Numbered from the stretch's first letter, positions 3,439-32,839 are shown. The stretch: DNA of 64,000 nucleotides from Ignavibacteria bacterium (GCA_016844745.1 JAERMQ010000018.1:15629-79628), one strand, 5' to 3'. Notes: generated from the letters alone by a model not told the origin. Made by a program: numbers and translations.

Positions 3439-4437
3439 ATGCAAGCAAGGACGTTAATCTCTCAATTTTTTCCTTATAGATTATTAAGGAAAATCTCACG
3501 GTCGCGGCTTGCCATGCCACTTTATCACCTTGTTAGCAATCAGACGCCTCCTCATGTCAGGCATTTACATATTGTAAAATCCGAACATGAATTTATTTCA
3601 GAATTGGATTTTTTTCTTAAGGAACACTCTCCAATCGGACTTCAGGACTTAATTGATTATATCATTAATGGCAGGCAGCTTCCTGAACATGCACTATTTC
3701 TATCATTCGATGACGGCTACCGGGAATGTTTCGATATTATCCGACCTATTCTTTTAAAAAAAGGAATCCCGGCAACATTCTTTCTGACAACAGATTTCCT
3801 GGATAATAAAAAGCTGGGATACAAGTGCAAACAGAGCGTTTTAAAAGAAAGTTATTTGATGTTATCAGGAGATAAAGAAATTAATCTGCTTCTTTCCTCA
3901 ATAGGCTTGAATTCGGGTGATTTCAGCAAGGCTGTCGATGCGTTGGAATATCATCATCAAGACAAAATAGATGAATTAGCAGAAATATTAGGAATTGATT
4001 TTAATGGATATTTAGCTCAATCAAAACCGTATCTTGACTCGACACAAGTCGAGCAAATGTTAGAAGAAGGATTTACAATCGGTGCTCATTCGGAAGACCA
4101 TCCGGTATTTGAGAATATTTCAATAAATGAACAAATCCGGCAAACCGAAAACAGTATTAAGTTTTTGGAAGAAAGATTCAAAATCAAATACAGAACATTT
4201 GCTTTTCCATTCTATGATAACGGAGTGGGAAGGAAATTTTTTGATGAAGCATCAAGCCGGCATCTTTTTGATATTTCCTTCGGAACGGCAGGGCTGATGG
4301 ACGACGATATACCAAACAATCTGCAAAGAGTTTGGATGGAAGCAACATCTCAAACAGCAAAAAATATTTTCAAGGAGAAATATTTGACAAAATTTGTTAA
4401 ATTACAAATTCATAAGAATATTATACACAGATTATGA
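3439..4437 (+). CDS. polysaccharide deacetylase family protein (NodB homology)
   Basis: 'LSFDDGYRECFDIIRPILLKKGIPATFFLTTDFL' is the NodB-type motif; 'GAHSEDHP' also present. Confidence 0.75.
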   Translation: MQARTLISQFFPYRLLRKISRSRLAMPLYHLVSNQTPPHVRHLHIVKSEHEFISELDFFLKEHSPIGLQDLIDYIINGRQLPEHALFLSFDDGYRECFDIIRPILLKKGIPATFFLTTDFLDNKKLGYKCKQSVLKESYLMLSGDKEINLLLSSIGLNSGDFSKAVDALEYHHQDKIDELAEILGIDFNGYLAQSKPYLDSTQVEQMLEEGFTIGAHSEDHPVFENISINEQIRQTENSIKFLEERFKIKYRTFAFPFYDNGVGRKFFDEASSRHLFDISFGTAGLMDDDIPNNLQRVWMEATSQTAKNIFKEKYLTKFVKLQIHKNIIHRL

Positions 4438-4455
4438 AAGAATAGGATTAGTGTT

Positions 4456-5652
4456 ATGAATACTATCGAAGAAGCATTAAAAGAACTTGCAGACGGAAAA
4501 ATGATAATCGTAATGGACGACGAAGACCGGGAAAATGAAGGCGATTTAATTATGGCATCCGAACTTTGCACACCGGAAACTGTAAATTTTATGTCAACAA
4601 AAGGTAGAGGACTAATTTGCGTGGCAATTACTACGGAAAGGGCTAAGGAACTGGATTTGGATGTAATGGTACATAATAATTCAGCTATACATGACACTAA
4701 ATTTACTGTTTCGGTTGATTATCTTCATGGAACGAAAACGGGTATTTCTGCTTTTGACCGCGCTGCCACAATTCGCGCTCTTGTTGATAAAGATACCAAA
4801 CCTGAGGATTTAGGACGCCCCGGGCATATTTTTCCTCTTATTGCCGTAGAAGAAGGTGTACTTCGTCGCACCGGTCATACTGAAGCGGCTGCCGACCTTA
4901 TGCGCCTTGCCGGTCTGAAACCTTGTGGTGTTCTTTGCGAAATCATTAAGGATGACGGTGAAATGGCAAGACTACCGGAGTTAATGATATTTGCCATGGA
5001 ATACGGCATGAAAATTATTACGGTAGCTGATTTAATCGCATATAGAAAACGTCGCGAATGTCTTGTTAAATGCGTTGCCACAGCAAACATCCCCAGTTCA
5101 TTCGGTGCCTTTGAAATTAAAGTTTATACTAATATTGTAGATGGCAAAGAGCATGTTGCATTAGTGAAAGGAGTATGGGAATCGGAGGAATCCGTTTTAG
5201 TGCGTGTTCATTCCGAATGTCTTACCGGGGATGTATTCGGTTCATTGCGATGCGATTGTGGCTCTCAACTTCATGCTGCTATGAAAAAAATCGAAAAGGA
5301 AGGCAAAGGGGTTTTGCTATACATGAGACAGGAGGGAAGAGATATTGGCTTAATCAATAAGGTGAAAGCTTATGCATTGCAGGAAAAAGGAATGGATACC
5401 GTTGAAGCGAACCTTGAGTTGGGTTTTGAACCGGACCCGCGGGACTATGGGATCGGAGCTCAAATATTATTCGAATTGGGGGTGAGGAAGATGAAACTTA
5501 TGACAAATAATCCGAAGAAGCGAGTAGGACTCGAAAGCTACGGTTTGGAAGTTACAGAAAGAGTACCGATAGAAGTGGAATCGAATGTCAATAATGCAGA
5601 ATATTTAAAAACAAAAAAATCAAAATTGGGACATTTATTGCATAATTTATAA
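4456..5652 (+). CDS. ribBA: bifunctional 3,4-dihydroxy-2-butanone-4-phosphate synthase / GTP cyclohydrolase II
   Basis: N-terminal 'DDEDRENEGDLIMASE' (RibB) and C-terminal 'RVHSECLTGDVFGSLRCDCGSQL' (RibA zinc site); 398 aa. Confidence 0.95.
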   Translation: MNTIEEALKELADGKMIIVMDDEDRENEGDLIMASELCTPETVNFMSTKGRGLICVAITTERAKELDLDVMVHNNSAIHDTKFTVSVDYLHGTKTGISAFDRAATIRALVDKDTKPEDLGRPGHIFPLIAVEEGVLRRTGHTEAAADLMRLAGLKPCGVLCEIIKDDGEMARLPELMIFAMEYGMKIITVADLIAYRKRRECLVKCVATANIPSSFGAFEIKVYTNIVDGKEHVALVKGVWESEESVLVRVHSECLTGDVFGSLRCDCGSQLHAAMKKIEKEGKGVLLYMRQEGRDIGLINKVKAYALQEKGMDTVEANLELGFEPDPRDYGIGAQILFELGVRKMKLMTNNPKKRVGLESYGLEVTERVPIEVESNVNNAEYLKTKKSKLGHLLHNL

Positions 5653-5687
5653 ATTTTGATTATTTTGCATTTTGTAAGAGGAAAAAA

Positions 5688-5728
5688 TAAAGCCGATGTG
5701 GAAATTGGCTTTATTTTTTTTATTTTTT
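5688..5728 (+). terminator. rho-independent terminator after ribBA
   Basis: Stem AAAGCC...GGCTTT with a 12-nt loop, followed by ATTTTTTTTATTTTTT. Confidence 0.5.
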
Positions 5729-5757
5729 GAACTAACATTTTCGCAACGGAGAATCAA

Positions 5758-6231
5758 ATGACAGACGTTGTTTACATGACTAAAGAAACCGTAATGGAAC
5801 TTGAAAAAGAGTTGCATGAATTGAAAGTTAAAGGTCGTAGGGAAATGGCACAAAAAATTGCTGATGCCCGTTCCCATGGTGATTTATCTGAAAACGCTGA
5901 TTATGATGCCGCAAAAGAAGCTCAACAAATGCTTGAAAGAAAAATTGCCAAAATTGAAACTACTCTTTCTAAAGTTCAAATAATTAGACCGGAAGAATTC
6001 CCAAGTGATAAAATTTATATCTTATCAAAAATTAAAATAAAAAATATAAATACAGGCGGATTTTTGGAATATATAATGGTTAGCGCAGAAGAAGCCGATT
6101 ACGAAAAGAATAAATTATCAGTTACTTCCCCGATTGGTAAGGCATTGATGGGAAAAAAAATTGGTGATAAAGTACAGGTAAAGGTTCCTGCCGGACTGAT
6201 TGACTATGAAGTAATTGAAATAGGAAAATAA
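5758..6231 (+). CDS. greA: transcription elongation factor GreA
   Basis: 157 aa: 'HGDLSENADYDAAKEAQ' coiled-coil N-terminal domain plus a C-terminal FKBP-like domain. Confidence 0.9.
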   Translation: MTDVVYMTKETVMELEKELHELKVKGRREMAQKIADARSHGDLSENADYDAAKEAQQMLERKIAKIETTLSKVQIIRPEEFPSDKIYILSKIKIKNINTGGFLEYIMVSAEEADYEKNKLSVTSPIGKALMGKKIGDKVQVKVPAGLIDYEVIEIGK

Positions 6232-6310
6232 TTTTTTATTACAATTATTTTGGCTTTTTTGAATCAATATGATTGGATACAATTTAATAAAGCGATGTTC
6301 TATTAATTCA

Positions 6311-6400
6311 TATTTTATTGTCATTCTGAACTTGTTTCAGAATCCAAAATCTTTAAAAATCAAGAAGATAGATTCTGAAACAAGTTCAGAATGACAATTT
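6311..6400. mobile_element. small MITE-like hairpin element (27-bp inverted arms TTGTCATTCTGAACTTGTTTCAGAATC)
   Basis: Near-perfect inverted repeat read directly. Its termini match the AATGTCATTCTGAAC ends of larger elements at 23.6 and 57.9 kb. Confidence 0.6.
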
Positions 6401-6427
6401 TTAGAACTACTCTAAAGGGAGACAGTC

Positions 6428-6802
6428 ATGGGATTAATTTTTATAGATGCTTCTTTAAAAAACAACAAAAAGCATAAAGAAATAAATATGTTAGTTGATA
6501 GCGGTGCGAGCTATTCCCTGATAACCCAAAAAAACTGGCAGGAATTAGGACTAAAACCAAAAAGGGAAATGGAATTTGTAATGGCAGATGGCTCCCGAAT
6601 CAGTCGAAAAATTTCCGAATGTTTTATTGAAATTCCGTTTTTAAAATCCGAAGGTCATTCTCCTGTCATACTGGGTGAGGATGGTGACGATGAAAATTTA
6701 CTTGGAGCCGTCACTTTAGAAATATTCGGATTAGTTTTAGACCCTTTGAACCGAACCATTAAGCCTATGAAGGCAATGCTGGCAAAATTAATTAAGAATT
6801 AA
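6428..6802 (+). CDS. retropepsin-like aspartic protease (clan AA, single-domain)
   Basis: 124 aa containing the 'LVDSGASYSLI' D-S/T-G-A catalytic motif of retroviral-type aspartyl proteases. Confidence 0.7.
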   Translation: MGLIFIDASLKNNKKHKEINMLVDSGASYSLITQKNWQELGLKPKREMEFVMADGSRISRKISECFIEIPFLKSEGHSPVILGEDGDDENLLGAVTLEIFGLVLDPLNRTIKPMKAMLAKLIKN

Positions 6803-6980
6803 GAATTAAGAATTAAAAATTAGGGAATTATTGGAACAAATCATGAAAATCACCGTATTAACGCAAATGCACGGCTCCAATTGGAACTTTTTCTAAGGCA
6901 ATTAAAGCAACCGCTGATTGGTTTACTACATTCCCAAAGTGACTGAATGCTATGGATGCGATAATTATTATTAAACTCAA

Positions 6981-7583
6981 ATGGAAAAAAAATTCTTCAT
7001 AATAATTTTTGTTTTTTTCTGCAATCATACGTTTTATTTAAATTTGTATTCTCAATCCGAACGTAATCTCGATAGTATGAAAAAACAATTTTTCTTTATG
7101 GATACTGTTGCGACACAGCAGGATACTATAAGAAAAGCTGATACATCAACAAAATTTACAATGAAAAAATCACCGATTACTGCAATTTTGCTTTCATTAG
7201 CTTTGCCTGGTGCAGGACAAATATATACCGGAAATTATTGGAAAGCTCCAATTTTTATAGCAGGTTCGGGTGCTTTAGTTTATGCTGCGATTTTCAATAA
7301 TAATAAATATAAAAATTACCAGAATTTGTATGATGGTGTAGTTGGTAAAGGTGGTTCATCAAGTTTAGACTCTATGTATTATAAACTCTATAAAGAATTC
7401 TACCGTGATAATCGCGACCGTAGTTTATTTTATCTTGGATGCGTCTATACATTATGTATCATTGATGCTTATGTAGGCGCTCATCTTTATGATTTCACAG
7501 TCAGCGATGATATAACCATGCAGTTAATCCCTAATTTGAATGGTGGATTGTCGGTCTCAATAAGTATGATTTTGAATAGATAG
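6981..7583 (+). CDS. DUF5683-like membrane protein
   Basis: 'LSLALPGAGQIYTGNYWKAP' is typical of the Bacteroidota DUF5683 family. The true start is probably internal (MKKQFF... or MKKSPI...). Confidence 0.5.
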   Translation: MEKKFFIIIFVFFCNHTFYLNLYSQSERNLDSMKKQFFFMDTVATQQDTIRKADTSTKFTMKKSPITAILLSLALPGAGQIYTGNYWKAPIFIAGSGALVYAAIFNNNKYKNYQNLYDGVVGKGGSSSLDSMYYKLYKEFYRDNRDRSLFYLGCVYTLCIIDAYVGAHLYDFTVSDDITMQLIPNLNGGLSVSISMILNR

Positions 7584-8938: not shown

Positions 8939-9451
8939 CTATTTAGATTTGAAAGCACTAAAGAAATAGAAAATAACAGTTCCAAATACCATAATTAGCG
9001 ATAACGGAAGAAACCACCACCCAAGCCCGGAAGTCTTTCCCAAAGCTGTCATACAGGAAAGAATGTTAATTAAAATGAAAATGATAATAATTATTAATTT
9101 CAGGAACCGGATTAGTTTTGTGGCTACCGTATATTGCTTTAAAAGGTTATCAGGTGTAATTTCAACGGGATAGTTAAATTTATGCGGATATTTATTTAGT
9201 ATGGTCAATCCAATAAAAAGAATTGTTCCTATCAGGGGAAGAAGGAAAATAGTTAACTTAGTACCATAGTCATCCGGATTGCCTGCGGCATTGAAATGAA
9301 TCGGGATTGTATCGGGAAGGAGCCTGTAATAATAAATTGTTAATCCCCATAAAATAATCAGCGAGACACGGGCTAACGTTTCAACAAGTCTATCCGATTC
9401 AGAAAGAATGATTTCTATTTTTGGTCTGTCCATATTTATATCCTTATACAA
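8939..9451 (-). CDS. integral membrane protein (DUF1648/SdpI-like)
   Basis: 170 aa with several TM helices. Overlaps the moeA stop, so it is the last gene of the molybdoenzyme operon. Confidence 0.4.
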   Translation of the reverse strand: MYKDINMDRPKIEIILSESDRLVETLARVSLIILWGLTIYYYRLLPDTIPIHFNAAGNPDDYGTKLTIFLLPLIGTILFIGLTILNKYPHKFNYPVEITPDNLLKQYTVATKLIRFLKLIIIIIFILINILSCMTALGKTSGLGWWFLPLSLIMVFGTVIFYFFSAFKSK

Positions 9452-10644
9452 TCTACAATTGAACCGGACTTAATTTCTGTTAACTCTTCAGGAAACATTA
9501 CCATGCAATTGGATTGGCTCAATGTGTACATATTACCGGATGATTGAGTACCTGCCTTTCTGACAAAGTACCTGTCTAAAGCAAAAACGTATTCGTAATA
9601 TCCCATAATGAAATGAAGTTTGTTATCTTTTTTATTTAAGTCTTCAACTATTTCTGCCGTAAAATGGAATTCAGATGCTTTACCATATATATATTTAATT
9701 GAAGGTTTTATAAATATATTAAAATTTACAAAAGATGAGAGTGGATTGCCGGGTAGTCCGAATATATATTTTTTGATGCCGTCTTGCTCAATTATTGAGA
9801 ACAGGAAAGGTTTGCCCGGTTTAATATTAACTCTCCAGAATATTGTTTTAGCTCCCAATTCCTTCAATACATCTTTCAGGTAATCATGTTGCCCGACTGA
9901 TACACCTCCTGTTGTAATTATAACTTCGGCTTTGCTTTCCAGGATTTTTCTGAATGTATTTGCTATTGATTGTTTATCGTCCTTAATTAATCCAAAATTA
10001 ATTGGTTTTATACCGCAATCTTTGATTAAAGATATTATTGAATATAGATTGGTTGCCCGAATTTGAGCATTTTCAGGTTTATTATCAATATCTACAAGTT
10101 CATCACCGGTTGAAATCACTGCTATTCTCAAAGGTTTCTTAACTTTCACTTTCCTTTGTCCGCAAGCGGCTAAAATTGGAATATGTTTTGTTTCAATTAA
10201 AGTACCGGATTTCACAGCCAAAATGCCTATAGGAAGGTCATTACCCATTTCTCTAATATGCTCACCGAATTCCACATGAGCATTATCATTTAGTATTACA
10301 ATATCATTTTGCAGTTCGGCATTTTCTACCGGTATGATTGTATCAGCTCCAATTGGTAATTTTGCGCCTGTCATAATAGAAACAGTTGTAGATTCATCGA
10401 TTGTGAATTCCGATTCGCTTCCGGCGGTTAACTGCCCAATAAGCCTCCATTTCCTGATTTCGGGATTGTATTTGATTGCATATCCATCCATTGCAGAATT
10501 GTCAAACGGAGGGAGGTTAATATCCGGGAAAATATCTTCTGATAAAACATAACCAACGGAATCTTCGAGAGGAACAGAAATATTGGTAATTACGGGCTTG
10601 AATTCCGTTCGCAATAAATCCAGTGCTTCTTTATAAGAAATCAT
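9436..10644 (-). CDS. moeA: molybdopterin molybdotransferase MoeA
   Basis: 402 aa: 'PPFDNSAMDGYA' and 'GGVSVGQHDY' are MoeA/gephyrin motifs. Confidence 0.85.
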   Translation of the reverse strand: MISYKEALDLLRTEFKPVITNISVPLEDSVGYVLSEDIFPDINLPPFDNSAMDGYAIKYNPEIRKWRLIGQLTAGSESEFTIDESTTVSIMTGAKLPIGADTIIPVENAELQNDIVILNDNAHVEFGEHIREMGNDLPIGILAVKSGTLIETKHIPILAACGQRKVKVKKPLRIAVISTGDELVDIDNKPENAQIRATNLYSIISLIKDCGIKPINFGLIKDDKQSIANTFRKILESKAEVIITTGGVSVGQHDYLKDVLKELGAKTIFWRVNIKPGKPFLFSIIEQDGIKKYIFGLPGNPLSSFVNFNIFIKPSIKYIYGKASEFHFTAEIVEDLNKKDNKLHFIMGYYEYVFALDRYFVRKAGTQSSGNMYTLSQSNCMVMFPEELTEIKSGSIVDCIRI

Positions 10645-10781
10645 ATATAAACCCCATCAGGAAAAATTATCAGGTAAATTATGATTAGGAAAAGTTTTCA
10701 ATGGTCAACTGTGAATTGTTTAAGGTTCATTAATAAAATCATGGTAATCCTTAAATCAAGTAAATCAGGGTTCAGACGATT

Positions 10782-11219
10782 TCAATATTCAGTCTTTATT
10801 TCATCATCAACAAATATAAGTCCGCCTTTAATCACTTTGGCAAAAATTCCCTCACGGGGCATAACGCAATCTCCGACAGCATTGTATATAGCACATCTCG
10901 AGTGACATTCTTTTCCTATTTGGGTGATTTCAATTTCCACATCCTTACCAATTTTTACGTGAGAGCCAATTTTTAATTGAAGCAGGTCTATGCCTAAGGT
11001 AGTAAGGTTTTCCGCAAAAATTCCAGGTATTAAATCTACCAAGCCTATTGCTTTCATTTTATTAATACTCTCCATGGCAAGTAAACTAATCTGACGGTGC
11101 CATTCCCCTGCATGAGCGTCGTCTTTAATACCGAAATTTTCGATTAACTCGGCGGAATCTACGTTTGATTTTGGTATTCCTTTTTTTGTACTAATGGAGA
11201 TAGCTTTTAGAGTGCTCAT
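10782..11219 (-). CDS. MOSC domain-containing protein
   Basis: 145 aa: 'GIKDDAHAGEWHRQISL' resembles the MOSC (MoCo sulfurase C-terminal) beta-barrel fold. Confidence 0.55.
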   Translation of the reverse strand: MSTLKAISISTKKGIPKSNVDSAELIENFGIKDDAHAGEWHRQISLLAMESINKMKAIGLVDLIPGIFAENLTTLGIDLLQLKIGSHVKIGKDVEIEITQIGKECHSRCAIYNAVGDCVMPREGIFAKVIKGGLIFVDDEIKTEY

Positions 11220-11221
11220 AA

Positions 11222-12226
11222 TTAGCCTCCTATCTCAATCATGTCATTATTTTCAAAATGAGCTAATTCGCTAACTTCCGGATGATGCAGTTCTTTTCCC
11301 AGCAAATAAATTTTAATCACATTAGAAATTTCAGTATCGGATAGACTGCTATCGAGCAGCTTCTTGATGTCAAGAGATTTATTTTTTAATGAGAATAAGC
11401 AAAGCTTCATTTTTCCTTCGGAGGTGATACGCAAACGGTTGCAATCGCCGCAAAAATGCTCGCTAATCGAAGAAATGAAACCAATTGAATAGTCAGAATC
11501 ATTTACCCTGTAATATTTGGCAACATCATTTGAAGTCCCGTTTAAAGTGAGCTTGTATTGCTTTGAGATTACATCTAACATTTCGATGTAACTTACGAAA
11601 TTATCCTCATTCCATTTGTTCATGCTGAAAGGCATATATTCAATAAAACGAATGGGAATAGTACGTTCAATACCGAATTTAACAAAATCCAACAACTCAC
11701 TAAAATTATTTTGCTTCATAACAACACAATTAATTTTGGGTTTCAGGTTCGGTTCCCTGATAACATAATCAATAGAATCTATTATTTTTCCAAGGTTGTT
11801 ATTACCTGTAATTTTGGTAAAGTTAAGAGCATTTAACGAATCCAGACTTATATTGATACTTGTAAATCCGGTTTTACTAAGAAGCGGGGCTTTTTCCTTT
11901 AGATTCGACCCGTTAGTTGTTATCCCTAACCGGGCATTATAGTTTTTATTTAATTCGTGAAGTTCGGTAACGAGAATATCAAAATCTTTTCTAATCAAAG
12001 GCTCACCGCCGGTCAACCTGATTTTGGTTATACCGTTTTGAAGAAAAATCTTTGTCAAGAGCAAAATTTCATCAACTGATAACTGATTCGTACCGTTCGA
12101 AGGTAAAATTTTATGGACCGGATTGCAATAAACACAGGAGAAATTACAATTATCCGTAATGGATAATCTCAGGTAATCATGCTGTCTGCCGTATTTATCG
12201 ATAAATTTCATATCGTTTTTTATCAC
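11222..12226 (-). CDS. moaA: GTP 3',8-cyclase MoaA (radical SAM)
   Basis: 'CNFSCVYCNP' radical-SAM cluster and 'GGEPLIRKD'; a C-terminal cluster is also present. 334 aa. Confidence 0.9.
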   Translation of the reverse strand: MIKNDMKFIDKYGRQHDYLRLSITDNCNFSCVYCNPVHKILPSNGTNQLSVDEILLLTKIFLQNGITKIRLTGGEPLIRKDFDILVTELHELNKNYNARLGITTNGSNLKEKAPLLSKTGFTSINISLDSLNALNFTKITGNNNLGKIIDSIDYVIREPNLKPKINCVVMKQNNFSELLDFVKFGIERTIPIRFIEYMPFSMNKWNEDNFVSYIEMLDVISKQYKLTLNGTSNDVAKYYRVNDSDYSIGFISSISEHFCGDCNRLRITSEGKMKLCLFSLKNKSLDIKKLLDSSLSDTEISNVIKIYLLGKELHHPEVSELAHFENNDMIEIGG

Positions 12227-12585
12227 TAATCTTTTTTATTTTCTATTACATCATCCACCCAACTTAAGGCAGCCATCATAGAGGGTAATCCAATTGTAGG
12301 AAGCGATAATAATACAGCATGACGAATTTCTTCGGGCGAACAACCTGCTTTCAATGCCTTTCGTGTATGGGAATGAACAGCGCCTTCGAGTCTTGCTCCG
12401 ACCGATATTGAAAGTTTGATTAAAGCCCTTGTTTTGTCATCGAGAGGACCGGCTTTATGAGCTGCATCGCCCATTGCCTCATAAGATTTTGCCACATCGG
12501 GATAATCTTCCGTGAATTTTACATAACGTTTTGGAATAGCCATTATTCGTTTCCTTTTTATTATTAAAAAAGCCCTGTATTGCAT
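12226..12585 (-). CDS. carboxymuconolactone decarboxylase/AhpD-like family protein
   Basis: 119 aa, small all-helical CMD-family pattern ('HTRKALKAGCSPEEIRHAV'). Confidence 0.5.
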   Translation of the reverse strand: MQYRAFLIIKRKRIMAIPKRYVKFTEDYPDVAKSYEAMGDAAHKAGPLDDKTRALIKLSISVGARLEGAVHSHTRKALKAGCSPEEIRHAVLLSLPTIGLPSMMAALSWVDDVIENKKD

Positions 12586-12715
12586 ATAATACAGAGCTGC
12601 GATTGATTCAGTCTATACTCCTTTGCAAATTCGGCAGGCATAGCTGTTTCCGGCTGTACCCTATCGGCTTCAAACCATGTCCGTAGATTTAGGTTGTGAA
12701 GCTCGGAGTTTTATT

Positions 12716-13363
12716 TTAGTTATTACTTATTTTATTATTTATAACCAAATTTAAATTTACAATTATATGATTTAATAATTTTCCTAAATTACAATAAAAT
12801 TCACTTGAAGAATTTTCTATGATTACATTAGCGAAAATTTGAACCCAACTACTAAAATAATTATGATAAAAATTAAATATTATTAAATCAATTAGTTCAG
12901 ACCTATTATAATCACTGATGCTTAAAACTTCATGTTTATTAAAAAATAGGAAATATAAGAATTCTAATTCAGCTATTATATGGTCGGGTAAATCTTTAAA
13001 AGTATTGTTAATTGATAAATCAGCATGGTCATAAATATTCATCACTTGAATTGTTGAATCTCCCATTAATTTACAATCTTCCAAATAATATGAACCATAA
13101 GGAGGCGCAATTACTTTAAAAGGTCCTACAAACAATCTTGCATATTCTACCATTAAATTTTCATTTGGATTTTCAATCAACTGAGATTTCAATTTTTTAA
13201 AAATTTCACCGGTAACAGGTGTGAGTTCCATGAAAGAAATCTCATTTTTTAAAATAAAAATATCGGACAGAAGAAATTCTCTGTTTGGAAATGAGAATAA
13301 ATTCGATAGAACTGAAAATATCAGCTCAATCCTTTTTATTTCGTCAATATTCTTATTCATCAT
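12716..13363 (-). CDS. TorD/DmsD-family redox-enzyme maturation chaperone
   Basis: '[23 protein letters not shown]' is the hallmark of TorD-like chaperones that bind Tat signals of molybdoenzymes. Confidence 0.7.
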
Positions 13364-14151
13364 ACTTTTTGTGTTTCGTACTCTCTAATGTAATAAACAT
13401 TAGGTTTTGTTCCGGGTTCTCCGCTTGAAAGGAAGTCACCTTTATTATTTTTTAGTTGTTTAATGGGATATTTTGCAATCAATTTACTTACTTCACTGTT
13501 GGGGTCATCAAAATCACCAACTGTCCTTGCCCGTGCCGGGCATGAAGCAACACAGTACGGTTCCATGCTGTCTTTCCTTCTATGGTCGCAAAGAATACAC
13601 TTTTCCGTAATATTTGATTTTCGAACGGGTTGATAATCCGAATGTTCGTAAATATTGGCATTAGGAGGAATATTTCCTACTTTTTTTGCAATTTCATCAC
13701 CAGATGCAGTACACCCTGCAATTACTTCTTTTTTATCTCTCCAAAATGGATGTACGGTAAATTCAGTATAGCTAATTACACTATATTGGTCTTTTATTTC
13801 AGTAATGTCTCTGTCGAAGCTGTAAGGGCAAGCATTTTGACACAATCTGCAGCCAATGCATCTTGAGTCATTGTGTAAAGTCAAACCATCAGGCGACTTA
13901 AACATAGCCTTAACTGGAGTAACAGGACAGATGGCAACGCATGGCGCATCGGTGCAATGATTACAAAGAACCGGTAATAATTGATACTTTGTATTTGGGA
14001 ATTGACCCTGGGTAGTGATATGATAATCTGCCCAATTGAATGTTTGGGTAGCTGATCTGTTCATAGTGTTATTTTCGGTTTTACATGCAATAGCACAAGC
14101 TCCACAACCAACGCACTTATGCAGATCTATTACCATTCCAAATCTTGACAT
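13360..14151 (-). CDS. 4Fe-4S ferredoxin-type electron-transfer subunit (DmsB/PsrB-like)
   Basis: Four CxxCxxCxxxCP-type clusters, beginning '[18 protein letters not shown]'. Confidence 0.85.
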
Positions 14152-14177
14152 ATTTTTCTCCTTTTAATATTTTTAAA

Positions 14178-17057
14178 TTATTTTGCTACTACTAATTTTA
14201 CGGCATTTCTCATACCATTTGCTTCGATATTGCAGATATACATTCCACTTTCCAGAATTGATGTATCGATTCTAAGTGTATGGCTTCCAGCTTCTAACAT
14301 GCCATTTGCGATAGTTGTAACTGCTTTACCGTTGGTATTGAACACTCGAATTTTGACGTTCGAAGCAATAGTTAATGTAAAATTGATTGTAGAATAATCT
14401 TTTGCCGGATTGGGATAAATATTGCCCATTATTAAATTGCTTGGTGATGTAGAATTATTTTCAACTATTCCGGTTGTTGCTTTTTCGATTTTAACGCCAA
14501 AGAAGCCACCGTTTCTACAAGTAGAACCGGAAAATCTTTCGTATTCGTCCGGAATAACGTCATTATTGTTCCCACCTCTTGGTGTACCTTTGCTAAAGTC
14601 AAGCGATGCAATTTTACCATAATATTTATGACCTTGTCCATAGGCTTTGGCAACTGTTCCTTCGCGTACTCCTTCCCATAATTTTGCTTTAACTTCGATA
14701 CTGCCGGTTAGTGATGAAATTTTTACCAAATCACCATCTTTAATACCAAGTTTTGCTCCATCTTTAGGATTCAATTTAATAACATCATCCCATGACTCAT
14801 CCCCAGTATCAACTTTATGGAACTCATGATACCAAGCAATATTTGCACTTCTTCCTTCTCTGTTTAATTTTGATTTATAATCAACAAATTCAAACGGGTA
14901 ATCCTTGATATCGCCTTTTCTCATTGGTGGCTCATAATGAGGAACAAATGCCAGTTCGCCTTGTGCAATATAATTATTTGAAGTCATAATATCGTCTATT
15001 GTTGTGGTGTATTTGGTTGCATGTTCGCCTAACACTTTTTTCAAAGTCTCGCTATAAAATTCGAATTTTTTTGTGACAGTACCAAAAGCACCCCAGGTTT
15101 TTTTGTAAGTATATTTGGATGACGATACAATTCCAATCTCTTTAAATTTTTCCCAACCACCTATAGTGTCATAAGCAGGTTTGGATTTTATTTTTGTTGC
15201 AATCTCTGCAAATTCTTCTGCTGTTGTTGGCAAGGCACTTGATTCCGGATCTTTAAATTCTTTTGATAAATAATCATAGAAGTTAGAAAATCCTTTAACT
15301 TTCAATTTTTCTGCAAGTAACCACATAATTTCATTTTCATCTGCTTTTTCATCCCATATTTTCTTAACAATTGGTTGTTGAATTGAATGGAAAGAATATA
15401 AATTAGCAAAGTCATCGCTTGAAGACCATTTTTGTGTAGCAGGATGAGCGGCAGGCAAAACTATATCAGCAAAATGAGTCATTTCTGATGCATTGGTAGT
15501 TATGTGAGCAAAAAATGGAAGCTTTGATAATGCTTCATCCCATCTCTGACCTTGCGTTCCTGAAAAATTGAAGTTACACCAATAACCAATACAAACTTTA
15601 ATATCATAAGGATCCGATTTTATTAACGCATTTGCCACATTATTTGTTACAACTCCACCACCTGATTTACCGCTTGCCATTGCGGGCATATTTTTTGTAC
15701 CTCTTTGGTCAATTTTCTTCTTTGCTGCTCCATCTTTTGCAATTTGGTCAATATAATTAGCATCGCTTGGGAATGAACCTAATGTAACTTTCCCATTTCT
15801 AAGTGTTCCACCTTCATTGTCAATAGAGCCTAATAGACCATTTAAAGCATGTATTGCCATTGAGATGTATGCACCTCTTGGACTCATAACAGGTCCGGGT
15901 CCTAACCACACGCAAGTATTAGGGGCGGCAGCACCCATACCTTTGGCTATTCTAATTATTTGTTCTTTAGGTATTAATGTGATTTTTTCTGCCCAATCCG
16001 GTGTTTTATCTTTTAATTCTAAATTCCACCATTTTACTAACCCACTTGTTTGTGTTTCAGTAAACGAAGATTCATCCACATTCTGACCTGCAACGAAAAG
16101 ATTAGTTCCCCCGTTGAAAGTACCAACAAATTCCTTCGACCACAGACCTTCAGTTAGAATTACATGAGCTAAGGCAGAAGCTAATGCCCCGTCTTCACCC
16201 GGTTTAATTGGAACCCATTCATGTGATTTTACAGCCGAAGCGCTCATTCTTGGGTCAACAGTTACTACAGTTGCCTGGTCTAAAACTGTTCCCATTTTAT
16301 TTATAACATTAGGTATTTGACGATTAGAGCTTAAAGGATCCGATCCCCAAAGAACCAGATATTTTGTTTTCAATAAATCGTAATCACGATAACCCCATAA
16401 ACCTTCAGTATAATATGGTCCAAATTTTTCGGCTTCAGCACACATAGCACTATGTGAAATATAATTAGGAGTACCGAATATTTTTGGTAAATATGTATAT
16501 GGAAAATCAGTCTGCCCTGTTGAATACCTACCTCTCAATAGCATAAATTTTTGAGGTTCATTTGCTGCACGTAGTTCCATCATTTTTGTCGCAATTGTAT
16601 CCAAAGCTTCGTCCCAAGTTATAGGTACAAATCCTGGATTTTCGTTTACACCTTTTTTGGGATTTGTTCTTTTCATAGGAACTTTAACTCTGTCAGGATC
16701 ATATAGTTCCATAATCTGAAGATGTCCTTTGGGACAGCAATAACCTTCATTTGATTTGGATAATTGATTTCCTCTAACTTTGACAACCCTCCCGTTTTGA
16801 ACAAAAAATTCTATTGCGCACCAAGTAGTGCATCCCTGACAAGTAGAAGGTACCCACTTACCTTCATAAGCAAGTAACTTGTCTTTCCCATCACCTTTTT
16901 TTTCAAAAGCTTTGAGTATTGGTGGTGTGGACAAAGCAATAGCTATACCAGCTCCCGTCAATGCAGAAGTTTTAATAAAACTTCTTCTGCTTGAGATAAG
17001 ATTGCTATCCAAGATAGTCTTGTTCTCTAAGGAATCGATTCTTGATTCATTTTGCAT
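14178..17057 (-). CDS. molybdopterin (DMSO-reductase family) oxidoreductase catalytic subunit with Tat signal peptide and T9SS C-terminal sorting domain
   Basis: N-terminal 'SRRSFIKTSALTGAGIAIALS' twin-arginine signal. A C-x2-C-x3-C-x27-C FeS motif and MopB-like body. The last ~85 aa ('IYPNPAKDYSTINF...VFNTNGKAV...AGSHTL...SGMYICNIEANG...KLVVAK') match the type-A T9SS C-terminal domain. Confidence 0.8.
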   Translation of the reverse strand: MQNESRIDSLENKTILDSNLISSRRSFIKTSALTGAGIAIALSTPPILKAFEKKGDGKDKLLAYEGKWVPSTCQGCTTWCAIEFFVQNGRVVKVRGNQLSKSNEGYCCPKGHLQIMELYDPDRVKVPMKRTNPKKGVNENPGFVPITWDEALDTIATKMMELRAANEPQKFMLLRGRYSTGQTDFPYTYLPKIFGTPNYISHSAMCAEAEKFGPYYTEGLWGYRDYDLLKTKYLVLWGSDPLSSNRQIPNVINKMGTVLDQATVVTVDPRMSASAVKSHEWVPIKPGEDGALASALAHVILTEGLWSKEFVGTFNGGTNLFVAGQNVDESSFTETQTSGLVKWWNLELKDKTPDWAEKITLIPKEQIIRIAKGMGAAAPNTCVWLGPGPVMSPRGAYISMAIHALNGLLGSIDNEGGTLRNGKVTLGSFPSDANYIDQIAKDGAAKKKIDQRGTKNMPAMASGKSGGGVVTNNVANALIKSDPYDIKVCIGYWCNFNFSGTQGQRWDEALSKLPFFAHITTNASEMTHFADIVLPAAHPATQKWSSSDDFANLYSFHSIQQPIVKKIWDEKADENEIMWLLAEKLKVKGFSNFYDYLSKEFKDPESSALPTTAEEFAEIATKIKSKPAYDTIGGWEKFKEIGIVSSSKYTYKKTWGAFGTVTKKFEFYSETLKKVLGEHATKYTTTIDDIMTSNNYIAQGELAFVPHYEPPMRKGDIKDYPFEFVDYKSKLNREGRSANIAWYHEFHKVDTGDESWDDVIKLNPKDGAKLGIKDGDLVKISSLTGSIEVKAKLWEGVREGTVAKAYGQGHKYYGKIASLDFSKGTPRGGNNNDVIPDEYERFSGSTCRNGGFFGVKIEKATTGIVENNSTSPSNLIMGNIYPNPAKDYSTINFTLTIASNVKIRVFNTNGKAVTTIANGMLEAGSHTLRIDTSILESGMYICNIEANGMRNAVKLVVAK

Positions 17058-17518: not shown

Positions 17519-20425
17519 ATGAAAAAGATTTACTTAATCGTTACCCTCCTGATGGTTATGGCAGCCGAATCCGAAGCGGACTGGAAATTAATTAATCCAT
17601 CGAAAACAGCCTCGAATTTAGTTGCAATTTCATTTACCGATTCTCTTTACGGTTGGGCTGCCGGCGAAGAAGGCACTATTCTTTTTACTTCGGATGGAGG
17701 AGTATCATGGGAATTGCAGAACTCCAATTGGGGAACATTAATAACTTCAATTAAAACTTTAAACAGGAAAAAAGTTTTTGCTATTAGTGACCACACAATA
17801 TTAAAAACTACCAATGGCGGTAAAAATTGGGAATGGGAATTATTCCCTAATGTAATTACAAATCTATATTTCATTAACGATAGTATAGGTTTTATTGAAG
17901 GTAACAAATTATTCCGTACCCAAAATGGAGGTAAAACTTGGGAAGATACCGAACTATTATCTGCTTCTTATGATAACCTAAGCTTCATTGATGAAAATAC
18001 GGGTTTTTACTATTATGCCAATCAAGTAAACAAAACATTCGATAAAGGTAAAAGTTGGTCGTTTTACCCGATTCCCAATAAAAAAAATGTTAGTTATGTT
18101 CGGTTCATTAATGAGAACAATGCATTTGCTATTATTGATAGGACAATTGGTAAAACCACGGATGGTGGGAGAAATTGGCAAAGTATTTATAGTCATTATA
18201 ATGCTTTTTATTCGTTACAGATAATCAATAAAAAGTTAATAAATCTTATAATAGCCGGAGGGCTTTTTATAAAAAGTACGGATGACGGTAAAAATTGGAT
18301 TGTTAAAAAAGTTGGTACTAACTTTCAGCCTAAAAATATTTTCTTTCTCGATAGCCTTCATGGCTGGATTTGCGGAAATGCAGGCTTAATTTATTCTACA
18401 ACCGATGGCGGGGAATCTTGGACTAAACTAACAAAAGGAGTAAGGGAAACTGTCCTTTCATTACATTTTTTCAATAAGGAAAGGGGAATTCTATTTGGGA
18501 ATAATGGTGCTATTATTGAAACTACCGACGGTGGCATTAGTTGGAATGAAAATTCTACAATAACTGACCAAAGAATTCTTTGCAATGATTTTATTAATGA
18601 TAAAATTGGTTGGATTGGTGGTGATAAAGGATTTTTGAATAAAACAACTGACCAAGGAAAATTGTGGTCAACAATAAAAATAGATTCTACTTTATCAATT
18701 GGAGAAATGCATTTCATTGATAATAGTCTCGGTTGGGTCCGTACTTATTATAATATTTACAGAATAGATTCAGGTAGTCCTAATCTGACTCAAATGAATA
18801 TAATTTTTAATAAAGATTTATTTGCCTCAGCTATTCTTTCACGTGGCGTGTATTTGGTTGGAGGAGCGCAGGGTTCATTATTGAAATCCAACGATTCGGG
18901 GAAAACCTGGTTCACAATAAATTCGGGTATAAAAAATAAAATTAAACAAATCAAAGTTTTTAATAATCTGTCATGGTATTTATTAACTGATTCGAATCAA
19001 ATTTATAAAACAACCGATGGCGGCAATTCATGGAATTCATTGCTTATAAATTCAAATAAAGTCGTTAATTATATTAACTTTTCCAATGAGCAAAATGGAT
19101 GGGCTGTTGGTATGGGAGGCAACATTTTGAAAACCACTGATGGCGGCATAAATTGGACAAGCAAACAAGCCAATACTTCAAACAGATTAAATTCGATAAA
19201 TTTTAATACTGCTTCCACAGGATATATTGCCGGATATGGTGGCGCATTGTTTGCCACAACAGATGGAGGTGAGAACTGGAAATTTATTGATTTAAAAGTT
19301 ATTGAAAATATGACAGATATTTTTTTCATAGACACAAAAACAGGATGGATTATCGGTGAAGAAGCTTTTATGAGGAAAACAACCGATGGCGGCTCTTCAT
19401 GGCAAGAAATTGTTTGCGGTGAAAGAAGTCATTTGACGCATATTATCTTTTTTGATACTAAAAACGGGATTTTATCTTCATCAATTGGAAATTTTTGGAT
19501 TACGACCGACGGCGGAGATAATTGGAATCCTTATGGAAGCGGTACAAATAAGTCTATAAACTCATTTTCCTTTTCTGACTCTCAAAATGGAATATATGCA
19601 GGTAATAATGGTAATATTTACAGTACAATTAACGGTGGAAAATCGTGGTCAATAATTAACTCAAGTAAAAATTTGCTACAAGTAATTAGGTTCGGATTTT
19701 TTGATAAACGAAATGGATGGATTTTGGGTAATAGCGGACAATTTTTTGTTACTTTTGATGGAGGCTCTTTTTGGAGCTATCGTTCCAGTTTGCCAAAGAC
19801 AATCAATAACTTATTTATTATTGATAATTACAATTTTTATGGTGTAGGAGATTCGGGAGCTATTGTCAAATCTACTGACGGAGGTATTTCATGGAAATCC
19901 TTAAACACCGGAATATCGAATAAACTAAAATCCGTTCGGTTCTTTGATTTGAATACTGGGATTTGCGTCAGCGAAAGCGGTCAGGTTATTAAAACCACCG
20001 ATGGAGGCTCGTCCTGGAATAAACTCCCAATGAATAAGAATTTAGCTTCATATCAGTTGTATTATTTTATTGTTGATACCGCAACTTGTTACGGTGCAGG
20101 TATCAACGGTTATATTTTCAAATATTCAACACAGTACCAATCCGCAGTGTTCGAGCCACTCACGGCAGGTTTTCCAACATCGATTTTTGTTTATCCGAAT
20201 CCAAGTTCGGGGTTCTTGACTATAAGATTATCAAATGAATCCGAAGACATCAAAAATGTTAAAATAGCCACACCTGATGGGAGATTAATACTTAACCAAG
20301 ACGGCAACAATTCAAATGAAATGAATCTTGATTTGAGCAATACAAATTTATCGAATGGTATGTATTATGCTAGAATTATTACAACCGATAGAACATATTT
20401 TTGCCCGGTTATTAATGTAAAATAA
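17519..20425 (+). CDS. BNR/Asp-box (Ycf48-like) beta-propeller repeat protein with T9SS C-terminal domain
   Basis: More than 15 'T[TN]DGG.[SN]W' repeats; C-terminal 'VYPNPSSGFLTIRL...GMYYARIIT' T9SS sorting domain. Confidence 0.7.
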   Translation: MKKIYLIVTLLMVMAAESEADWKLINPSKTASNLVAISFTDSLYGWAAGEEGTILFTSDGGVSWELQNSNWGTLITSIKTLNRKKVFAISDHTILKTTNGGKNWEWELFPNVITNLYFINDSIGFIEGNKLFRTQNGGKTWEDTELLSASYDNLSFIDENTGFYYYANQVNKTFDKGKSWSFYPIPNKKNVSYVRFINENNAFAIIDRTIGKTTDGGRNWQSIYSHYNAFYSLQIINKKLINLIIAGGLFIKSTDDGKNWIVKKVGTNFQPKNIFFLDSLHGWICGNAGLIYSTTDGGESWTKLTKGVRETVLSLHFFNKERGILFGNNGAIIETTDGGISWNENSTITDQRILCNDFINDKIGWIGGDKGFLNKTTDQGKLWSTIKIDSTLSIGEMHFIDNSLGWVRTYYNIYRIDSGSPNLTQMNIIFNKDLFASAILSRGVYLVGGAQGSLLKSNDSGKTWFTINSGIKNKIKQIKVFNNLSWYLLTDSNQIYKTTDGGNSWNSLLINSNKVVNYINFSNEQNGWAVGMGGNILKTTDGGINWTSKQANTSNRLNSINFNTASTGYIAGYGGALFATTDGGENWKFIDLKVIENMTDIFFIDTKTGWIIGEEAFMRKTTDGGSSWQEIVCGERSHLTHIIFFDTKNGILSSSIGNFWITTDGGDNWNPYGSGTNKSINSFSFSDSQNGIYAGNNGNIYSTINGGKSWSIINSSKNLLQVIRFGFFDKRNGWILGNSGQFFVTFDGGSFWSYRSSLPKTINNLFIIDNYNFYGVGDSGAIVKSTDGGISWKSLNTGISNKLKSVRFFDLNTGICVSESGQVIKTTDGGSSWNKLPMNKNLASYQLYYFIVDTATCYGAGINGYIFKYSTQYQSAVFEPLTAGFPTSIFVYPNPSSGFLTIRLSNESEDIKNVKIATPDGRLILNQDGNNSNEMNLDLSNTNLSNGMYYARIITTDRTYFCPVINVK

Positions 20426-20486
20426 TGAGTTGATATAAAAAATTTTATTAATTTAGAATCGGGTAATTAATAAGTATGGTGATGAA

Positions 20487-21560
20487 ATGAAAATAATTTT
20501 TATTCTAATTCTGTTTTACTCTTCGAGCGCATTTGCTTCTTTAGAAAAGAGCATAATTATAGACCATAAATCCGCCTCTCAATTCGAAAAAATTCCCACT
20601 GAATTTCTATCTGCAACTATTAATTTAAAACACATGTTCAGGCATGCTTCTGTTGGTACTACAATAGACGGCGGGTTGAATTGTCTGCAAGGAACGAAAA
20701 ATAACTGCAAACAATATCCACAATATAAATATGACAGGCGGGCATGGCAGTGCCAGCCAAGGGGCAATTCCGGCTGGTTCGGTAAAGTCGATGATTTTGT
20801 CACTCAAGTTACAGCACAAGAAGAAAATTTTGATATATTTTCATTTAAATATTGCTATCTCGATGGATTAGACCAGGTTGCAGAGCCATGCGGCGGCTAT
20901 CCATCAAAGCCTGATAAAATCAAGAAAGCATGGGATTACCTGAAAGATAATATGTTAACGGTTGAAAATAAATATCCCCAGAAAGTATTTGTATGGTGGA
21001 CTATTCCATTGACTCAAATCGGGCAGTATTGCACTGATGAGTTGAATAAACTTATCCGTGATTATTGCAAAGAAAACAAAAAAATACTATTCGATTTAGC
21101 CGATATTGAGTGCCACGACACAACAGGTGCAATCGTCAAAAATGAACAGGGATTGGAAAAAGCATTCAAACCTTATTGCGGCGAACAAAAACCTGATGCT
21201 GCCGCTTGTCATCCGAACGATTTTGGAGCTTCAATTATTTCGAAAGCATTCTGGGTAATGATGGCTCAAATTGCAGGCTGGGAGCCGGGTATAACATATA
21301 CTAAAGAATTTGATGAAGATAGTAACACTGATATTATTATTTCTCCCAATCCGGTTTCCGATTATTTAGAAATAAGACTCAATTCGATTGCAATTGGAAC
21401 TCAAATTAATGAGATAAGAATTATAAATAGTCTTGGTGAATGTATGAAAAAACAAATCCTATCCGTATCATCAATTCAAAGACTTTCGGTATCAGAATTG
21501 AATACCGGTATATATTTCATTAATATTGGTAACCAAACTTTTAAATTCGTAAAATTATAA
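20487..21560 (+). CDS. secreted hypothetical protein with T9SS C-terminal domain
   Basis: Signal peptide, Cys-rich body, and C-terminal 'ISPNPVSDYLEIRL...GIYFINI' domain. Confidence 0.5.
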   Translation: MKIIFILILFYSSSAFASLEKSIIIDHKSASQFEKIPTEFLSATINLKHMFRHASVGTTIDGGLNCLQGTKNNCKQYPQYKYDRRAWQCQPRGNSGWFGKVDDFVTQVTAQEENFDIFSFKYCYLDGLDQVAEPCGGYPSKPDKIKKAWDYLKDNMLTVENKYPQKVFVWWTIPLTQIGQYCTDELNKLIRDYCKENKKILFDLADIECHDTTGAIVKNEQGLEKAFKPYCGEQKPDAAACHPNDFGASIISKAFWVMMAQIAGWEPGITYTKEFDEDSNTDIIISPNPVSDYLEIRLNSIAIGTQINEIRIINSLGECMKKQILSVSSIQRLSVSELNTGIYFINIGNQTFKFVKL

Positions 21561-21582: not shown

Positions 21583-22125
21583 TTACTTTAGCATTATCGT
21601 CGTAATACAAGACCTGCTGTCATTATAAGTAGGGATTATTTCCTGTCCGGATTTATTATCATACGTTATTTTCAACTCAATATTTTTATTTCTGGTCAAC
21701 CATAACTCGATAAATCCATGCTTCAATGAAGTAATATTTCCATCAAAATAAGTGATGGAGATATTGTCTTTGTCTTTTGCTGTTATCTTGAATTCTTTTT
21801 CGTTGATTTCACCGGTGCAGCTCGATGGATAATGAGTAGAACATTCGTGAGTTTTGTTGATATATGGCGCTATTGCTATATACATTAAGCTATCAGGCAA
21901 AGATTTGCTTGTTTTCCTGCCATCGGGGAATTCAAATTTTACTTCATTCGTTGTTATAAGCGATGTGATTTTCGGGGCTGAATCACGCCATTCGTTAGCC
22001 AATGCTATCGCCTGCTTAGCTTCAAGATTAGCAAGGGCATCGTAATAGCTATTATAATTTGGGTCGGTTGAATTTGAACAGCCGAATATTCCAATTACAC
22101 ATAAGATGATAGGAATGATTTTCAT
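21583..22125 (-). CDS. lipoprotein, unknown function
   Basis: Signal sequence 'ILCVIGIFGCSNS' contains a lipobox. Confidence 0.45.
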   Translation of the reverse strand: MKIIPIILCVIGIFGCSNSTDPNYNSYYDALANLEAKQAIALANEWRDSAPKITSLITTNEVKFEFPDGRKTSKSLPDSLMYIAIAPYINKTHECSTHYPSSCTGEINEKEFKITAKDKDNISITYFDGNITSLKHGFIELWLTRNKNIELKITYDNKSGQEIIPTYNDSRSCITTIMLK

Positions 22126-32826: not shown

Positions 32827-32839
32827 TTTGAAATCCTTT

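Follow-up and report, generated by a model that had tools for sequence, protein, structure and literature searches.

A predicted ArrAB-type arsenate reductase with a twin-arginine signal and a type IX sorting domain in Ignavibacteria: a candidate cell-surface enzyme

The DNA analysed here is a stretch of 64,000 nucleotides from the metagenome-assembled genome (MAG) of an Ignavibacteria bacterium (GCA_016844745.1, JAERMQ010000018.1:15629-79628); this whole stretch is referred to as the window, and positions are counted from its first letter. Its minus strand carries a locus predicted to encode a respiratory arsenate reductase, ArrAB, and a chaperone, ArrD. The catalytic subunit ArrA possesses a signal for the twin-arginine translocation (Tat) pathway at its N-terminus and a type IX secretion system (T9SS) sorting domain (C-terminal domain, CTD) at its C-terminus. 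An initial annotation, made from the sequence alone, had described this protein as an unspecified or Psr-like molybdoenzyme and a candidate surface-displayed terminal reductase. The features of the locus, named by predicted identity, are as follows:

14178-17057, minus strand: arrA, catalytic subunit with molybdenum bis(pyranopterin guanine dinucleotide) (Mo-bisPGD), 959 aa, Tat signal N-terminal and T9SS sorting domain C-terminal
16908-17057, minus strand: Tat signal peptide of ArrA, aa 1-50, with a long n-region, S23-R24-R25-S-F-I-K, an h-region and the site LKA50/F51
14421-14480, minus strand: linker, aa 860-879, variable and predicted to be disordered, between the catalytic body and the CTD
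14181-14420, minus strand: T9SS type-A sorting domain, aa 880-959, with YPNP, G-x-Y and a K-L-V-V-x-K end
13360-14151, minus strand: arrB, four-cluster Fe-S electron-transfer subunit, 263 aa (best family NF041715, 242 bits)
12716-13363, minus strand: arrD, TorD/DmsD-family chaperone for Tat proofreading and cofactor insertion (PF02613, 83.8 bits)

A Shine-Dalgarno sequence (GGAG) lies 9 nt 5' of the arrA ATG. The top NCBIfam family for the product is ArrA (NF041714, 1045.7 bits, model positions 4-847/848), four-fold ahead of the next family, PhsA (261 bits), with DmsA at 185 bits and TtrA at 67 bits. A search of the PDB returned ArrA of Shewanella sp. ANA-3 (6CZ7) with 916 bits over query residues 66-859, a match at roughly the 55-60% identity level, while polysulfide/thiosulfate reductase scored 169 bits. 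Pfam domains identified were Fe4S4 (67-113), Molybdopterin (123-538) and Molydop_binding (755-846), and the [4Fe-4S] motif reads C73-x2-C76-x3-C80-x27-C108. Alignment places R177, Y178, H202, S203, C206, K211 and Y223 opposite R165, Y166, H189, S190, C193, K198 and Y210 of the ANA-3 enzyme, and all seven are unchanged in the thirteen aligned members of the CTD-bearing clade described below. From the ANA-3 structure, we take C206 to be the Mo-ligand cysteine and the other six to be arsenate-binding positions. The R-G-R-Y motif of the protein is presumably of ArrA type and not of ArxA type; only that motif and the high similarity to ANA-3 ArrA speak for ArrA over this sister enzyme (the anaerobic arsenite oxidase). 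The features by which ArrA proteins have been recognised, namely a Tat signal, the C-x2-C-x3-C-x27-C motif and the Mo-ligand cysteine, are all present (PMC2500031).

A polysulfide or thiosulfate reductase of the Psr/Phs type was ruled out by the model scores (PhsA 261 versus ArrA 1046 bits) and by the absence of an NrfD-type gene within -6/+8 kb of arrA. The assignment of the 14178-17057 enzyme as ArrA of a respiratory arsenate reductase, made from its sequence, is strong but not absolute. It replaces the unspecified or Psr-like reductase of the initial annotation, and the Fe-S subunit, then called PsrB-like, is of ArrB type (NF041715). The public record of the arrA product (MBM2814762.1) is named 'anaerobic selenocysteine-containing dehydrogenase', which is misleading because the gene has no in-frame UGA and the Mo-ligand position is C206.

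At the equivalent of query residue 859 the solved ArrA chain stops; residues 860-959 lie beyond the known enzyme and are missing from ordinary homologues, which are about 847 aa long. When scanned with hidden Markov models (HMMs), residues 880-957 scored 52.9 bits against PF18962 (Por_Secre_tail, cut-off 27) and 41 bits against TIGR04183 (cut-off 23), and the T9SS type-A domain proposed in the initial annotation is in this way confirmed. An AlphaFold (AF2) model of the tail, made with 39 related CTDs, is a sandwich of seven beta-strands (predicted local distance difference test, pLDDT, 93.6; predicted template modelling score, pTM, 0.81). Among its Foldseek neighbours in the PDB are T9SS CTDs, namely those of mirolase (8qb1, TM-scores 0.66/0.68), NucA in the translocon complex (8glk_D) and PorU (6za2); the remaining neighbours are generic Ig-like folds, and the CTD fold taken on its own is generic. 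The tail is not an Ig-like domain shared with periplasmic homologues, which have no such domain: about 105 of the 120 best ArrA homologues lack the CTD, are 830-870 aa long and end near residue 859. Four further proteins of the window pass the PF18962 cut-off, with a fifth just under it, which indicates that the organism uses the T9SS sorting system.

The full-length AlphaFold model (mean pLDDT 60, alignment of thirteen sequences) was read for the CTD and linker only, and its catalytic body was not used; in it, the linker has a pLDDT below 50. Across six pairs of loci, amino acid identity of the linker ranges from 6 to 50% and its ratio of non-synonymous to synonymous differences (pN/pS) from 0.43 to 0.88. 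The closest pair gives pN/pS values of 0.13 (body), 0.26 (CTD) and 0.54 (linker), which are meaningful as a ranking only, since synonymous sites are saturated. Judged from these comparisons of sequences, the CTD of ArrA is a real domain and is maintained by selection.

The Tat signal ascribed to the 959-aa subunit was likewise borne out. SRRSFIK is present, and none of the 13 aligned proteins of the CTD clade departs from the RR pair, the F or the L-x-A-F site (this alignment omits M1, its numbering being the true residue minus 1). Cleavage at LKA50/F51 is probable. The Pfam model TAT_signal (PF10518) gives 18.5 bits, under its cut-off of 22.7. The N-terminal Sec signal typical of T9SS cargo is absent from ArrA, its signal being of the twin-arginine type instead. 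The n-region ahead of the arginines is long in CTD-bearing ArrAs, with RR at a median position of 24 (range 15-27); in 102 ArrAs without a CTD, the median is 5, and in the fetched ArrA partners of CTD-bearing ArrBs, RR lies at positions 5-6. Three proteins of the window carry Tat signals (ArrA, a multicopper oxidase and PsrA), and ArrA alone among them has a CTD. In one related locus (L003; fetched loci are denoted by L and a number), a tatA/B/E-family gene (9649-9969) lies directly upstream of the CTD-bearing arrA and downstream of arrX/S/R-like genes, and by its position looks like a dedicated Tat component within the operon.

A comparative survey was made of which subunit bears the CTD. Among ArrA proteins, the domain was identified in fifteen clusters with 56-83% identity and a variable linker and CTD; the RR motif is kept in 13/13 of those with an intact N-terminus, two clusters having been set aside (P0010, an N-terminal fragment, and P0011, a C-terminal assembly chimera). 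In a Kapabacteria locus (L021), the arrangement is reversed: ArrA (838 aa) has the RR motif and no CTD, while ArrB is 363 aa long against the usual ~262 and ends in a CTD (PF18962, 27.2 bits; TIGR04183, 33.5 bits, cut-off 23), its N-terminus (MARYGMVIDLQKCTGCGAC) showing no signal peptide. Such ArrB-CTD fusions make up 42 of the best 120 ArrB clusters; they are 346-376 aa long, all begin at the ferredoxin motif, and none has a signal peptide. They occur at loci L021, L082 and L086-L088, where the ArrAs bear RR, lack the CTD and have the same active-site motifs. No Fe-S subunit family other than ArrB was found with a CTD among the best 150 matches of the ArrB-CTD search (50% clustering).

Among the 85 fetched loci and the window, the CTD is on ArrA in the window and L001-L007, on ArrB in L021 and L082, on neither subunit in 76 and on both in none. 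In a neighbour-joining tree of the catalytic body, every CTD-bearing complex has its ArrA in a single clade (49/50 bootstraps), within which no complex lacks a CTD, so that there is exactly one per complex. The partners of ArrB-CTD form a subclade inside this clade, and the ArrA-CTD set on its own has 68/100 bootstraps. One pair of Kapabacteria loci shares its downstream genes and is distinguished only by the subunit that bears the CTD, and reading frames are intact in eight fetched loci. By source names, the lineage comprises MAGs of Ignavibacteria, Kapaibacteriota, 'Chlorobi bacterium' and Bacteroidia. Rhodothermales are members of a T9SS phylum; their Arr falls in a distant clade, carries no CTD and has an ArrC anchor. 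The taxonomic titles of two records look wrong: L006 (CAYYPE010000009.1), titled as a 'Hyphomicrobiales' MAG, has an arrA-CTD of Ignavibacteria/Kapabacteria type, 73% identical to that of the window, and L023 (CALQCM020000002.1), titled 'Chitinophaga pinensis', has a CTD-less ArrA whose C-terminal 130 residues are a near match to Rubrivivax and other proteobacterial MAGs.

The ArrB of the window has neither a signal peptide nor a CTD, and its N-terminus begins directly at the first cluster motif; arrB starts 26 nt downstream of arrA, and its product is identical to protein P0203. The arrD gene overlaps the arrB stop by 4 nt and is kept directly after arrB in L001-L005, L021 and L086-L088; its product matches the NCBIfam DmsD and TorD models under their cut-offs. 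No regulator gene adjoins arr in the window itself. In related loci, genes for ArrX/S/R-type sensors lie upstream of arrA (L003, L004 and L087), acr3, arsC and arsP adjoin arr in L088, and L005 has genes for an ArsR-type regulator and an Acr3-family (SBF) protein. ArrX has been described to bind arsenate with a Kd of ~1 uM (PMC5908839). These sensor and ars genes support an arsenate role for the enzyme.

Taken together, the two signals and the placing of the CTD on either subunit suggest that ArrAB is exported by Tat and, tagged by its CTD, is sent as a whole folded complex to the cell surface by the T9SS, a reading to which we give a probability of roughly 0.55. While still in the cytoplasm, ArrA would be loaded with Mo-bisPGD and its [4Fe-4S] cluster with the aid of ArrD and bind the signal-less ArrB, and the folded heterodimer would then cross the inner membrane on the twin-arginine signal of ArrA. 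Such co-export has been established for Arr as well as for its wider family and would apply here also; without a signal peptide of its own, ArrB could reach the periplasm only by riding with ArrA. The T9SS would next recognise the single CTD, on whichever subunit it stands, and the folded complex would cross the outer membrane, after which the CTD would be removed and ArrAB attached to the surface or released. T9SS cargo is described as being moved in the folded state through the 36-strand barrel of SprA (PMC9251779), and the last strands of the seven-strand CTD sandwich are the export signal (PMC4804311). Because the CTD may stand on either subunit with one per complex, and because a CTD on ArrA must not strip away the subunit through which electrons enter, the unit handled by the T9SS would be the assembled ArrAB. 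The site of arsenate reduction would then lie outside the periplasm, with the speculative benefit of access to mineral-sorbed As(V), of keeping As(III) outside the cell, or of both. A tentative claim, which we hold at somewhat under even odds, is that the T9SS can export a folded, cofactor-bearing heterodimer delivered by Tat, with its CTD on either subunit; ArrAB would then be the first example of a Tat-to-T9SS route, of a hetero-oligomeric T9SS cargo and of a respiratory arsenate reductase at the cell surface.

Several points weigh against this reading, and its main weakness is the supply of electrons to a surface ArrAB, for which no route was found. Genes for cytochromes, porins or other electron donors accompany arr in none of nine CTD-bearing contexts: for the window, L001, L003-L007, L021 and L082, the -6/+8 kb around arrA held no ORFs (open reading frames) rich in CxxCH and no polytopic candidate for a conduit, and the annotated products around arr in those loci included no porin-type barrel family. 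The surface DMSO reductase of Shewanella, by comparison, has DmsEF in its operon (PMC9048795). In L088, a gene for a NapC/NirT (CymA-like) inner-membrane cytochrome lies ~9 kb upstream of arr and would suit a periplasmic Arr. The core T9SS genes (SprA, PorV, PorU, GldKLMN) are not in the 64-kb window. The cargo described in reviews of the T9SS consists of Sec-dependent single polypeptides (PMC9251779), and a cofactor-loaded heterodimer would be without precedent and, at 125 kDa, may come close to the largest size that the translocon can pass. Saturation of synonymous sites makes the estimates of selection rough, and secretion, CTD cleavage and surface location of ArrAB are all steps that we infer. 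As to the enzyme itself, its separation from ArxA leans on the R-G-R-Y motif, and the scores of ArrA (1045.7) and ArrB (242) fall below the NCBIfam equivalog cut-offs of 1600 and 450, which are conservative naming thresholds and not biochemical criteria. The CTD is no drag on the ArrA score; it is divergence from the seed sequences that accounts for the shortfall. With both subunits below these cut-offs, membership of the Arr clade is strong and not absolute.

A serious rival, unlikely as we judge it, is that ArrAB is periplasmic as in Shewanella and that the CTD is non-secretory or only partly secretory, serving to dock the enzyme to PorV or the inner face of the outer membrane, to load it into outer-membrane vesicles or to control its turnover. 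To our knowledge, no periplasmic role of that kind is known for type-A CTDs. Such a location would agree with the lack of a conserved outer-membrane electron conduit beside arr in the nine contexts, with the CymA-like NapC/NirT gene near arr in L088, and with the size and hetero-oligomeric state of the complex, which are without precedent among T9SS cargo (PMC9251779); an anchor-less ArrAB fed by an inner-membrane cytochrome is also a known mode (PMC2500031). Against these stands the CTD itself: it scores above the cut-offs of HMMs specific to the T9SS, and it retains its last strands, which carry the export signal (PMC4804311). The Arr of Rhodothermales, moreover, is membrane-associated through ArrC and has no CTD, which argues that the CTD is not a general tether in the superphylum.

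The enzyme might instead be exported and not primarily respire arsenate, acting as an extracellular arsenite oxidase in reverse, on another oxyanion or with electrons delivered by shuttles. The ArrA score under the equivalog cut-off leaves room for this, and a surface enzyme with no conduit might trade electrons in either direction with soluble shuttles or surface cytochromes. It is rendered improbable by the 916-bit match to a characterised ArrA, by the invariance of residues that we take to form the arsenate site, by the presumably ArrA-typical R-G-R-Y motif and by the ArrX-type sensors and ars genes of related loci. That the CTD is a functionless, decaying or accidental fusion, or an artefact of assembly or gene calling, finds some footing in the chimeric end of homologue P0011 and in the fast evolution of CTDs. 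It is essentially excluded by the fifteen ArrA and 42 ArrB clusters, which derive from independent NCBI, JGI, ENA and Logan assemblies, by intact frames in eight loci with purifying selection on the CTD, and by the occurrence of exactly one CTD per complex across a well-supported clade.

The lack of a membrane anchor does not help in choosing between a surface and a periplasmic location. In agreement with the initial annotation, neither NrfD/PsrC/NarI-type genes nor proteins with at least six transmembrane helices were found within -6/+8 kb of the window arrA. That absence had been taken as a pointer to surface display, an argument that falls away because the anchor-less state is usual for Arr: among 76 non-CTD arr loci, drawn from species-representative genomes, a polytopic membrane protein stands beside arrAB in 13 and is missing in 63. 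The typical arr operon encodes a soluble periplasmic ArrAB, with ArrC only sometimes, and the Shewanella enzyme is fed by CymA (PMC2500031).

Haem proteins are encoded elsewhere in the window:

40491-41780: 'Cyc2-like' ORF, 429 aa, one N-terminal CxxCH, no Pfam match
36223-37194: CoxB-like cupredoxin with a two-haem cytochrome
52537-53844: ten-haem cytochrome, among regulator genes

The initial annotation had joined the Cyc2-like and multihaem cytochromes to the reductase as a nearby extracellular respiration module. Those it named lie 23-36 kb from arrA, and the three genes listed 19-36 kb; they are not conserved beside arr and were rejected as its partners, and an extracellular respiration module is not supported. 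The Cyc2-like and CoxB-like genes adjoin a copper-resistance island (21583-36192), which encodes CueP, a CusCBA-type efflux system (OEP, HlyD/CusB with heavy-metal-binding domains, AcrB-family pump), HMBD (heavy-metal-binding domain) proteins, a histidine kinase and the multicopper oxidase with a Tat signal. Small T9SS-CTD proteins are also found within this island (32840-33496, and a weak match at 24896-25651 fused to an FtrD-like domain). The cluster at 36223-42189 also includes a weak NapH/MauN-like membrane ferredoxin (37206-38675), YtkA-like and CarboxypepD_reg proteins and a 129-aa ORF with one haem motif. In L087, genes for EB_dh (haem-b, DOMON-like), DUF5777, YceI-like and OB-fold proteins lie between arrXSR and arrA (3753-7367). 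From its predicted domains, the EB_dh/DUF5777/YceI set is conceivable as an outer-envelope electron path for a surface Arr; as a conserved conduit it was rejected, being absent from every other locus and from the window.

Downstream of arrD, the minus strand continues with the following features:

12571-12598, minus strand: terminator-like hairpin and T-run between arrD and the CMD gene, found by consensus scan (11-bp stem, then TTTTTAATAA)
12226-12585, minus strand: CMD/AhpD-like gene (PF02627, 66.3 bits)
11222-12226, minus strand: moaA (GTP 3',8-cyclase), molybdenum cofactor (MoCo) synthesis (TIGR02666, 313 bits, cut-off 284)
10782-11219, minus strand: MOSC-domain gene (PF03473, 36.9 bits; NF011069, 201 bits)
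9436-10644, minus strand: moeA (molybdopterin molybdotransferase), with MoeA_N, MoCF_biosynth and MoeA_C domains
8939-9451, minus strand: small DUF1648 membrane protein (PF07853, 60.8 bits), overlapping the moeA end

The gene content listed in the initial annotation stands. The putative terminator, and relatives L001 and L005, in which arrABD stands alone, make it uncertain that arrABD and the MoCo genes are transcribed together. The real start of the CMD/AhpD-like gene is probably M15, at 12543. Such a gene also directly follows arrD in L003 (14291-14605), L004 (14533-14850) and L021 (14406-14735), and the product in the window has weak matches to ArsM-AhpD, in its AhpD domains, and to arsenosugar-associated peroxidase-like proteins. 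NF011069 is a model of a MoaC/MOSC fusion, of which the window protein matches the MOSC half, and the moeA product scores 351.6 bits against NF007960, under the cut-off of 440. The DUF1648 gene is not of anchor type and is absent from the arr loci of L001-L007. Relatives have a sigma-54 activator; matches to a sigma-54 promoter 5' of arrA were at chance level, none of them intergenic.

Divergent from arrA (17519-21560) are genes for a BNR/Ycf48-like repeat protein of 968 aa that bears a T9SS CTD and for a 357-aa protein in which a CTD is the sole recognisable domain. A small ORF at 49638-50051, with an IS1595-type transposase zinc-ribbon domain only, may be an insertion sequence remnant. In the Kapabacteria loci L021 (14710-17814) and L007 (6336-9499), arrD and the CMD gene are followed by genes for a pair of small multi-pass membrane proteins and for a TonB-dependent receptor, and a TauE/SafE-family permease and a MobA-like gene are common to the ArrB-CTD loci L082, L087 and L088. 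Possible roles for these shared genes, going by their families, are uptake of the cofactor metal or export of an anion.

No published description of a Tat signal combined with a T9SS CTD on Arr or another molybdoenzyme was found in a search from which most subscription journals fell outside. The locus appears to represent an Arr with new targeting and a new class of cargo for the T9SS. Other CTD-Arr proteins are publicly named '4Fe-4S dicluster protein' or 'T9SS type A sorting domain-containing protein', names that leave both arsenate function and targeting invisible in databases. A conserved lineage with one CTD on either subunit would extend the T9SS to Tat substrates, signal-less hitch-hikers and hetero-oligomers, and arr-CTD offers a clean, testable system for T9SS biology. 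In aquifers and paddy soils, ArrA is the marker gene by which arsenic mobilisation is followed, and a periplasmic location is assumed for the enzyme. If the surface location is true, arsenate reduction by some Ignavibacteria, Kapabacteria and Bacteroidia would take place extracellularly, on iron minerals for instance, and a surface Arr in such widespread organisms of the Ignavibacteria/Kapabacteria type would bear on access to sorbed As(V) and on the site of As(III) release.

With PsrABC and PhsABC, the enzyme shares its superfamily, the Tat signal and the fold of the Fe-S subunit; unlike it, Psr always has the PsrC anchor and no CTD, and PhsA scores only 261 bits on ArrA. The window has a Psr/Phs enzyme of its own (locus 60726-64000), with 515 bits to PhsA, a Tat signal and no CTD. 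The region 60271-64000 encodes a MerR-family regulator followed by this PhsA/PsrA-like molybdoenzyme, PsrB and beyond, the same arrangement as MROS_1773-1776 of Melioribacter roseus, for which the role of that organism's arsenate reductase has been proposed (PMC5492636). The MAG therefore has both such a locus and Arr, while its cultured relative M. roseus is without an Arr-clade enzyme (PMC5492636).

ArrAB of Shewanella ANA-3 (6CZ7) and the Arr clade share with the window enzyme the catalytic body, the Fe-S motif, the Mo-ligand cysteine and the arsenate-site residues. The Tat signal on ArrA only, the signal-less four-cluster ArrB, the arrA-arrB order, the TorD-family chaperone and the usual absence of an ArrC anchor are also in common with that clade (PMC2500031). 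The window ArrA differs from ANA-3 ArrA in the 100 residues of linker and T9SS domain past the last residue of the structure, and CTD-bearing ArrAs differ from ordinary ones in their longer n-region (median RR position 24 versus 5). The host, an Ignavibacteria MAG, also differs, and no CymA-type donor was identified for the window Arr.

The extracellular DMSO reductase of Shewanella oneidensis, DmsEFAB, was an apt parallel to draw in so far as it is also a Tat-type A/B molybdoenzyme with Mo-bisPGD and Fe-S subunits. DmsAB is described as passing the outer membrane in the form of a folded complex and acting at the cell surface (PMC9048795, citing Gralnick 2006). The parallel fails at the conduit: the decahaem cytochrome and porin (DmsEF) that supply electrons to DmsAB are co-encoded with it, and none stands beside arr-CTD. 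DmsAB is exported by the type II secretion system without a linear sorting tag, whereas Arr has a modular T9SS CTD, and the enzyme clade and substrate differ as well. Type-A T9SS cargo such as RgpB of P. gingivalis, mirolase of T. forsythia and NucA of F. johnsoniae resembles ArrA in its CTD of ~80 aa, a seven-strand Ig-like sandwich preceded by a flexible linker (PMC4804311). Canonical cargo, however, consists of single polypeptides with Sec signals (PMC9251779); in the window the signal is of the Tat type and the cargo would be a cofactor-loaded heterodimer, and in the ArrB-CTD variant the tagged protein is itself without any signal peptide.

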